Positions 48,027 through 48,374 of a stretch of DNA of 64,000 nucleotides are shown here, one piece after another. Every line of letters begins with the position of its first letter. Positions within the stretch are counted from its first letter, which is position 1. The notes beneath the pieces were generated by a model. That model made no database searches, was not told where the DNA came from, and worked only from the letters and a program-made list of their open reading frames with translations. This DNA is from Escherichia coli. GTDB lineage: Bacteria > Pseudomonadota > Gammaproteobacteria > Enterobacterales > Enterobacteriaceae. Both the position numbers and the translations under genes were made by a program. The stretch lies in NCBI RefSeq assembly GCF_048403405.1, contig NZ_CP183129.1, one strand, 5' to 3'.

Positions 48027-48374
48027 GATGTTGGGAGACGATTAAATGGTTATATCACTACTACGCCCTTTCCAGACGGCGTATAAGAGTGCAACATGTT
48101 GAGTTTTCCGAGTGAATGGTGCATTTTACTAACCGAGCCATTTGAATCAACCAACGCAATAAAAAAGACTGGAATAATAAGCCTGTATTTATTATTCATC
48201 GCAATCGCACTCTACGGTTTTATCCTGCAGAAATGAGACTACTTCCAGCGGTTGTGGATTATCCCTGGGCGATAGTCATAGTCTTGTGTCAGGATTCACA
48301 AATGACCTGTTACCTGACATGGATATAAACACAACATAGAGTGCGGTAGTTAATCTGAATCATCTATTTTTCGG

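Follow-up and report, generated by a model that had tools for sequence, protein, structure and literature searches.

The closest described counterpart of the locus studied here is the Z5211-Z5214 "Z-locus" (bgl/Z locus type III) of Escherichia coli, known from O157:H7 and from strains of phylogroup D/E (Sankar et al., 2009, PMC2646131). The authors regarded it as a single islet that had "presumably replaced" bgl, and they noted that O157 is without yieI and yieJ (Sankar et al., 2009, PMC2646131). A second arrangement of the region, phoU - yieJ/cbrC - yieH, is the type V locus of Escherichia albertii, with counterparts in Escherichia sp. E1V33 and Pseudocitrobacter vendiensis. Tandem and segmental duplications and island insertions are known to leave gene remnants and novel-junction scars in bacterial genomes.

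We analyzed a stretch of 64,000 nucleotides of E. coli DNA (RefSeq assembly GCF_048403405.1, contig NZ_CP183129.1), referred to below as the window, with the focus on a gap between two genes of an AT-rich islet. This islet and the Z-locus are the same locus, as it occupies the same place between phoU and yieH, has about 30% GC, contains two paralogous large open reading frames (ORFs) with another ORF in the middle, and occurs in about 19-20% of strains, but there are also differences. Neither relics nor a duplication are mentioned anywhere in the earlier description (Sankar et al., 2009, PMC2646131), whereas the islet of the window consists of two modules split by remnants of cbrB and cbrC (denoted cbrB' and cbrC'), and the spacer between its phoU and cbrC corresponds to the bgl-less type seen in E. 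albertii. The loci of E. albertii, E1V33, and P. vendiensis share gene order and orientation with the window, and the relics align with them piece by piece; unlike the window, they carry an intact cbrC, no effector genes, and a reduced cbrB. As in known duplication scars, the gap holds truncated core-gene fragments with stop codons that diverge at a neutral rate, and at the junction the middle of a downstream gene runs into the 5' part of an upstream one, an arrangement that a tandem duplication would be expected to leave at its join point.

The gap is, in all likelihood, a non-functional mosaic of gene relics (cbrB', cbrC', and yieH') together with a duplication junction, rather than a gene. 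It is an ordinary non-coding junction scar, and as such an instance of an already known type of feature.

The Islet and Its Unannotated Gap

The islet extends from about 45095 to 52412, between phoU, which ends at 44980, and yieH, and contains three genes that we name according to earlier work (PMC5931665; PMC4048457). Gene 1, espY5' (Z5214/ECs4657), lies on the plus strand with a start at 45386 or 45407 and an end at 47905, and together with its upstream region it covers 45235-47905. Gene 2, espX3 (Z5212-13/ECs4654-55), is located on the minus strand at 48375-49562 and gives weak pentapeptide-repeat matches, while gene 3, at 49823-52276 on the plus strand, is espY4 (Z5211/ECs4653), annotated as the type III secretion system effector EspY4. 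The islet is followed by an intact yieH on the minus strand (52413-53078), the source gene of the yieH relics (yieH') described below.

Between gene 1 and the convergent gene 2 lies a gap of 469 bp (47906-48374). In the eight RefSeq carriers that were inspected, no feature is annotated in it except in one record, where the call of a gene 1 pseudogene overhangs it by 16 bp. Of 5426 complete E. coli genomes, 1094 (about a fifth) carry the gap segment, O157:H7 and enteroaggregative E. coli 042 among them, and it is single-copy and chromosomal. Gene 2 was found in 1099. A preliminary description of this DNA had reasoned that ordinary intergenic sequence would be found with the island in all carriers, and as far as presence is concerned the segment does travel with the islet in about 99% of them.

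The same description had pointed to a base composition more balanced than that of the flanking genes and to the lack of a credible ORF, and both observations are borne out. The GC content is 0.400 in 48040-48374 and 0.399 in the whole gap, compared with 0.295, 0.302, and 0.312 in genes 1, 2, and 3, respectively (about 40% vs 29.5-31%) and with 0.52-0.54 in the core flanks. All ORFs in the gap are short (31-49 aa), the ones considered further being of 46 aa on the plus strand and of 49 and 32 aa on the minus strand, and they are not maintained among alleles. The segment had furthermore been suggested to be a remnant of displaced ancestral sequence, an island junction scar, or a small RNA gene. 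The first two suggestions turn out to be right side by side, because decayed fragments of cbrB, cbrC, and yieH were found in ancestral synteny and a duplication junction was found alongside them; the third fares poorly, as discussed below. In total, essentially every base of 47956-48374 can be assigned to decayed older DNA when the minus strand is read from the espX3 stop.

Relics of cbrB and cbrC

The BLASTN comparison with Escherichia genomes that had been proposed for the segment first pointed to the identity of the relics, as it returned matches to cbrC and to yieH in E. coli genomes. In a sensitive search, 48152-48262 matched the cbrC of bgl-type strains with 74.8% identity over 111 bp in 3530 genomes, and the match to K-12 has an E-value of 5e-17. 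At the protein level, residues 14-49 of K-12 CbrC align with the minus strand of the window (tblastn, 61% identity, E = 2e-9). Together with the alignment to E. albertii, these matches delimit a cbrC' (yieJ) relic at 48152-48299 on the minus strand that corresponds to codons 1-49 of the gene. The E. albertii alignment continues through to 48370, over 241 bp in all (68.9% identity, E = 1e-29), and includes 71 bp upstream of cbrC.

The translation of cbrC' on the minus strand contains the conserved motif ending in FYCV, and the length from the start to the PLE motif is equal to that in K-12 CbrC. However, GTG stands in place of the ATG start (48299-48297), and there are in-frame stops at codons 8, 36, and 37, which are common to all eight full-length alleles save that codon 36 is Gln in A16. 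Because the stops are common to the alleles, the gene must have died before the alleles diverged. The Pfam family PF03691 (UPF0167) reaches E = 0.011 and 16 bits on cbrC', below the 25-bit cut-off, since only 49 codons, with stops, are left. An intact cbrC frame of about 195 codons is absent from the window, and what remains are codons 1-49 and the last eight or so.

These last codons lie at the other end of the interrupted gene, on the far side of gene 1, where 44981-45094 (minus strand) holds the ancestral phoU-cbrC spacer and about 26 bp of the end of cbrC. The stretch 44821-45094 is 80% identical to positions 9760-9497 of E. albertii L013 (E = 9e-63), and the spacer contains a REP-like element, seen in the Rfam scan as a weak naRNA4/REP match at 44992-45053. 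Similarity to K-12 on the phoU side ends at about 44967; K-12 does not have the 44981-45094 stretch because the bgl-yieLK block is located there.

On its other side, cbrC' is preceded by a relic of the cbrB-cbrC intergenic spacer (48300-48349, minus strand), which measures 50 bp vs 48 bp in K-12 and includes the old ribosome-binding region of cbrC. Beyond it lies the 3'-terminal relic of cbrB (yieI) at 48350-48374 on the minus strand, with the old stop TAA at 48352-48350, and this cbrB' adjoins the stop codon TAG of gene 2 (48377-48375). The spacer and the cbrB tail were delimited by a multiple alignment of the window with K-12, E1V33, MOD1-EC7003, and Pseudocitrobacter, in which the end of cbrB reads ..GTAGCCGAAAAATAGATGATTCAGATTAA in the window and ..ATGTCCTGAAACAGACTCTTTAAGTTAA in K-12. 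The synteny of cbrC' is thus the ancestral one, as it lies between phoU and yieH, with the end of cbrB and the spacer before it.

This origin also provides a rationale for the intermediate GC content of the gap, which reflects the source of its DNA: the 5' ends of functional cbrC genes have 41-43.5% GC and yieH has about 48-52%, vs 30% for the effector genes. AT-biased decay was rejected as the main cause, since 15 GC>AT and 11 AT>GC remnant-specific changes favor it weakly and functional cbrC 5' ends are already at 41-43% GC.

Relics of yieH and the Fusion Junction

Directly after the CbrC match, residues 106-128 of K-12 YieH align with the window (tblastn, 65% identity, E = 2.7e-5), and blastn against E. 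coli genomes matched 48088-48145 to yieH. The homology of this part of the gap to yieH, which encodes a 6-phosphogluconate phosphatase of the HAD family, therefore holds at both the nucleotide and the protein level. Two pieces can be distinguished on the minus strand. The internal piece (48088-48151, codons ~106-126) is 82.8% identical to 52700-52763 of the intact gene in the window (E = 1.8e-12). The 3'-terminal piece (48042-48076), comprising about the last 11 codons and the old stop position, lies within a longer match of 47956-48076 to 52326-52447 (73% over 122 bp, E = 1.3e-17), which also takes in a hairpin. The two pieces are separated by an internal deletion of about 240 bp, corresponding to 52448-52699 of the intact yieH, and the 3' end of yieH' and the hairpin downstream of it follow each other as they do in the intact copy. 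The hairpin-yieH flanks in the gap and at the end of the islet are thus paralogs, with local alignment scores of 55 for the hairpin and 3' piece and 42 for the internal piece, whereas the best of 300 shuffles reached 15. The internal piece is nearest to the resident yieH allele (82.8%, vs 70% for K-12 yieH).

The two gene relics meet at 48151/48152, where about codon 104 of yieH is joined to codon 49 of cbrC. The junction (48148-48155) reads CAAC|CAAC on the plus strand and GTTG|GTTG on the minus strand, while GTTG occurs just once at the breakpoint in either parent gene. The motif is therefore doubled in the fusion, whereas the classic signature of microhomology is a single copy.

The two relics are unevenly decayed, a point that speaks against our interpretation. 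At columns that are invariant in functional copies, 27 of 108 positions are changed in cbrC' but only 3 of 41 in the internal piece of yieH' (Fisher p = 0.02). Because cbrC' is the more decayed, either the two decays did not start together or gene conversion from yieH refreshed yieH'. An earlier death of cbrC and gene conversion from yieH are both possible.

The divergence of cbrC' also bears on where the scar arose. It differs by 29-36% from every functional cbrC found, while these differ from one another by 6-18%, even across genera. This would fit with the relics being flanking DNA of a donor, that is, with an assembly of the whole haplotype in a different Escherichia-like lineage, from which it would have entered E. 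coli via homologous recombination in phoU and in yieH/adeP. The very deep allelic divergence of yieH, the K-12 allele of which is 80% identical to that of the window, points in the same direction, as do the differences of up to 11% among island alleles in the gap and the high sequence variation of the Z-locus (Sankar et al., 2009, PMC2646131). However, greater divergence is to be expected of a pseudogene free of constraint than of genes under constraint, the ancestral synteny is exact on both sides, and yieH' is nearest to the resident yieH. Moreover, no donor species with the islet was found, and a scan with CbrC of one genome per species revealed none with effector genes beside cbrC. Such an introgression is considered unlikely, and it would alter where the scar arose, not its nature.

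The Hairpin

The inverted repeat downstream of gene 1 that had been noticed earlier is a hairpin at 47963-48028, recognized by its fold energy and by its paralogy to 52333-52399. Its outer stem pairs GACGCTTAC.CATCAG with yTGATG.GTAAGCGT, its inner stem pairs CTGGT with ACCAG, and it folds with -34.3 kcal/mol (z = -5.2) on the plus strand and -22.5 kcal/mol (z = -4.2) on the minus strand. The second copy, downstream of gene 3, folds with -32 kcal/mol (z = -4.4). Between the copies, 43 of 44 stem positions are identical, vs 11 of 23 outside the stems. Carrier genomes have exactly two copies each, whereas non-carriers and plasmids have none. A dispersed repeat of the REP/BIME, ERIC, or MITE kind is ruled out, as both of the two copies in a genome lie in the islet. 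On the yieH side, similarity to K-12 and E. albertii starts precisely with the yieH stop (52413/52414). The hairpin is therefore part of the islet, and the duplication that gave rise to the hairpin-yieH flank in the gap copied across the boundary between islet and core.

Both copies are found between convergent genes, espY4 and yieH in the case of copy 2 and espY5' vs the relics plus espX3 in the case of copy 1. In this position, as well as in their high stability and conserved stems, they resemble intrinsic (Rho-independent) terminators. However, copy 1 has no U-tract on the plus strand and CUUUUC alone on the minus strand, the loop of the hairpin is 13-14 nt, and its stem is long and interrupted. 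In a consensus terminator scan the full hairpin was not called, and just a 6-bp sub-stem appeared as terminator-like. Judging from its stability and its conserved stems, the hairpin is probably the sole part of the gap that is still functional, where it would mark or stabilize the 3' ends of convergent transcripts. The relic DNA from gene 2 to the hairpin would then probably be carried merely as the untranslated tail of the espX3 transcript.

Tests for Function

Nucleotide diversity was determined for seven alleles, which were chosen to span the range of identity and are not a random sample, using a separate alignment for each segment, because a MAFFT alignment of the whole locus was inflated by the deleted locus of RMDEC465. 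The gap as a whole evolves at a neutral rate: its diversity is 0.067 among these seven alleles, vs four-fold-site values of 0.058 in pstB, 0.082 in phoU, 0.074 in yieH, and 0.063 in gene 2. This applies to every sub-piece, with 0.050 in cbrC', 0.068 in the cbrB-cbrC spacer and cbrB' tail (48300-48374), 0.071 in yieH', and 0.077 in the hairpin region. The intergenic region between genes 2 and 3, with a diversity of 0.019, is clearly constrained.

The rates bear directly on the suggestion of a small regulatory RNA, which would be transcribed from its own gene or from the 3' UTR of espX3 and be processed at, or end with, the hairpin. The position between convergent genes would be suitable for such an RNA, its end would be formed by a very stable hairpin with CUUUUC next to it on the minus strand, and a promoter might have been kept in the old upstream region of cbrC or be provided by weak sigma-70-like hexamers in the gap. 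However, besides the neutral diversity of all sub-pieces, promoter-like matches are at the level of shuffled sequence (5 vs 4.7), and the segment as a whole is no more stable than its shuffles on either strand (minimum free energy z = -1.6 on both). The covariance-model scan that had been proposed gave only chance-level matches in the gap: in 44500-53000, with E up to 10, the best of these (E = 2.7 and 4.5) were to eukaryotic snoRNA/miRNA models and far below the gathering scores. In addition, strains of the RMDEC465 type tolerate a deletion of 68 bp on top of lacking the yieH' part, and a literature search found neither a small RNA reported at this locus nor a description of the relics. Together, these results make a small RNA very improbable.

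Still less probable, to the point of being hardly credible, is a micro-protein gene, either the 46-aa ORF on the plus strand, with a hydrophobic C-terminus like that of type I toxins, or the chimeric 49-aa ORF on the minus strand. The 46-aa ORF does end in a transmembrane-like stretch (GIISLYLLFIAIALYGFIL), and the length of the 49-aa ORF is kept in eight of nine alleles. However, the frame of the former is not kept across alleles, as premature stops reduce it to 17 aa in A16 and S1-SRL-01-C and the loss of its stop extends it to 59 aa in O157, which speaks against both a type I toxin and another small hydrophobic protein. The 49-aa ORF combines an out-of-frame cbrC' start with a residual yieH' frame, has ATA in place of ATG in O157, and shows many non-conservative changes. 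Neither ORF is called by RefSeq. The small ORFs are by-products of the relic frames, the 46-aa ORF being simply the antisense of cbrC'/yieH'.

A possible new role for the decayed DNA has to be weighed as well. An RNA of about 350 nt derived from the relics, in the form of a 3' UTR of an espX3 transcript extending to the conserved hairpin or of a processed product, might regulate the convergent espY5' or other targets; we consider such a co-option quite improbable. An origin of the gap from a mobile element was also discarded, since plasmid matches were mislabeled chromosomes or ordinary cbrC, and two phage matches were to an ordinary segment of cbrC.

Paralogous Modules and Proposed History

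The arrangement of the relics divides the islet into two modules. Module A (~45095-48151), which consists of gene 1, its hairpin, and yieH', interrupts cbrC. Module B (48375-52412) consists of genes 2 and 3 and hairpin copy 2 and stands in place of most of cbrB and of the cbrB-yieH spacer. The island had previously been treated as one unit, and this view has to be revised, as old DNA lies between two inserted modules. Because the relics lie between the modules, the islet must have arisen in no fewer than two steps, and a segmental duplication was one of them.

The modules are themselves related. The upstream region and 5' half of the effector genes (45235-46503 vs 49694-50928) share 59.8% nucleotide identity (E = 1.6e-76), while no nucleotide alignment is possible for the 3' halves; at the protein level, genes 1 and 3 share 32.5% identity over 836 aa (E = 2e-110). 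The homology begins about 150 bp upstream of both genes and includes a 27-bp upstream motif that they have in common. The flanks of the fusion are thus paralogous, and the order at the join is downstream gene followed by upstream gene. Divergence is uneven across the duplicated parts, with 17% in the middle of yieH', about 50% in the non-stem part of the hairpin, and 40% in the 5' halves of the genes.

The likely starting point is indicated by genomes that lack the islet. In the scan with CbrC, covering one genome per species, the plain layout yieH - short spacer - cbrC - REP-containing spacer - phoU was found in three genomes, those of E. albertii, Escherichia sp. E1V33, and P. vendiensis. 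The "short spacer" in E1V33, MOD1-EC7003, and E. albertii is itself a remnant of cbrB, composed of its start and end. The ancestral order would accordingly have been phoU(+) - REP spacer - cbrC(-) - cbrB(-) - yieH(-), with the same order plus the bgl genes in K-12.

From this backbone, we propose the following history. The AT-rich module B, with espX3, espY4, and the 3' hairpin, would first have replaced most of cbrB, up to the yieH stop. Subsequently, a segment comprising an espY promoter region, the gene, the hairpin, and the 3' part of yieH to about codon 104 would have been copied into cbrC, and decay of the relics would have followed. The copying may have occurred by tandem duplication, with a join of yieH codon ~104 to cbrC codon 49 and later deletion of the upstream espX3/cbrC copy, or by direct duplicative insertion. 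In comparison with ordinary duplication scars, the second espX3 copy predicted by a simple tandem duplication is missing, and for this reason a further deletion must be assumed; the presence of GTTG twice at the junction is another departure from that pattern.

The intact bgl-less phoU-cbrC spacer argues that the bgl and Z islets were inserted independently of each other into a common ancestral backbone, and that bgl was never located between phoU and cbrC in the lineage of the window. Contrary to the earlier presumption, the Z islet has therefore probably not "replaced" bgl.

Overall, these results give a base-by-base account of an unannotated gap in about one-fifth of E. coli genomes and remove a false lead, as the gap holds neither an RNA gene nor a micro-protein in our reading. 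The relics serve as molecular fossils for the EspY4/EspX3/EspY5' islet. They point to a bgl-less, E. albertii-like phoU-cbrC-cbrB-yieH backbone on which the islet was assembled in two or more steps, and one of these steps copied both an effector gene and the boundary between island and core. The relics can be used for the annotation of cbrC, cbrB, and yieH pseudogenes and for the history of a classic H-NS-silenced locus, although the value is modest and the mechanism unsurprising.

In addition, the effector genes were found to be far more diverged (32.5% amino acid identity) than the duplicated non-coding flanks (65-83% nucleotide identity). Because the effectors outdiverge their flanks, either very fast evolution of the effectors or a later replacement of the coding part is needed. 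One further possibility, slightly likelier than the co-option of the relics as a 3' UTR but still improbable, is that highly divergent espY coding cassettes are exchanged by recombination between fixed boundaries formed by the conserved 27-bp upstream motif and the 3' hairpin. Codon positions 1 and 2 of genes 1 and 3 are at least as diverse as their four-fold sites.

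Putative regulatory sequences of the islet

The divergent intergenic region between espX3 (gene 2) and espY4 (gene 3), at 49563-49822, has a pi of 0.019 among alleles, vs 0.06-0.08 at neutral sites. Its conservation is roughly three times that of neutral sites and of all other non-coding pieces of the islet, and the region is probably a regulatory one common to espX3 and espY4.

Upstream of the paralogous genes 1 (espY5') and 3 lie two nearly identical copies of a 27-bp motif, AATGAGC(G/T)ATTTTTTACAGTATTCA, at 45272-45298 on the gene 1 side and at 49731-49757 on the gene 3 side, each preceded by an inverted repeat, CCAGGGT..(A/G)CCCT. 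The distance from the motif to the candidate start codons is approximately 110-135 bp for gene 1 and 65-115 bp for gene 3. Because the motif is conserved far beyond the coding regions of the two genes, which share 32.5% amino acid identity, we regard it as a candidate promoter or operator.

Variation of genes 1 and 3 and of the islet

The alleles of gene 1 (45407-47905) have a diversity of 0.151 at codon positions 1+2 vs 0.127 at four-fold sites, and the corresponding values for gene 3 (49823-52276) are 0.090 and 0.088. In many RefSeq records, these genes are marked as frameshifted or as containing internal stops. Either genes 1 and 3 are decaying under relaxed constraint, or they are subject to diversifying selection. 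The 3' half of gene 1 seemed to be particularly variable in an initial whole-locus alignment that was afterwards judged unreliable.

A divergent variant of the islet is found in strain RMDEC465 (locus L003, 5240-6141), in which gene 1 is cut down to a 764-bp internal fragment adjoining a shortened cbrC' relic; hairpin copy 1 and the decayed yieH pieces (yieH') are lost, and a further 68 bp are deleted. In some 14 genomes, the hairpin is present but the gap between genes 1 and 2 is not matched over its full length.

History of the surrounding locus

In Escherichia sp. E1V33 (locus L011, ~8532-8721), MOD1-EC7003 (L012, ~9803-10000) and E. albertii (L013, 8741-8937), the apparent spacer between yieH and cbrC is a cbrB remnant, in which the start codons are joined to the last codons, and strain N64 (L010) has cbrB and lacks cbrC. 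Thus, cbrB and cbrC are eroding independently in several lineages.

The yieH of the window (52413-53078) is only 79.6% identical to the K-12 allele (L009, 9731-10396), an unusually deep split within E. coli, vs 95% for the N64 allele, and the window allele is about 90% identical to E. albertii across adeP-yieH. This deep allelic divergence, together with the closeness to N64 and E. albertii, suggests that old recombination or introgression may have occurred around the yieH locus.

The ancestral phoU-cbrC spacer contains, at 44992-45053, a REP-like element that gives a weak Rfam match to the REP-derived naRNA4 (E 0.005, below gathering) and is also found in E. albertii.

Finally, segments that match the cbrC' portion of the query at 74.8%, the same figure as for E. 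coli K-12 cbrC, occur in two records labelled "Campylobacter phage" that carry no annotation, MG065686.1 (at 130666-130776) and MG065691.1 (at 43347-43457); these cbrC-like segments are probably contaminating E. coli DNA or the product of chimeric assembly.
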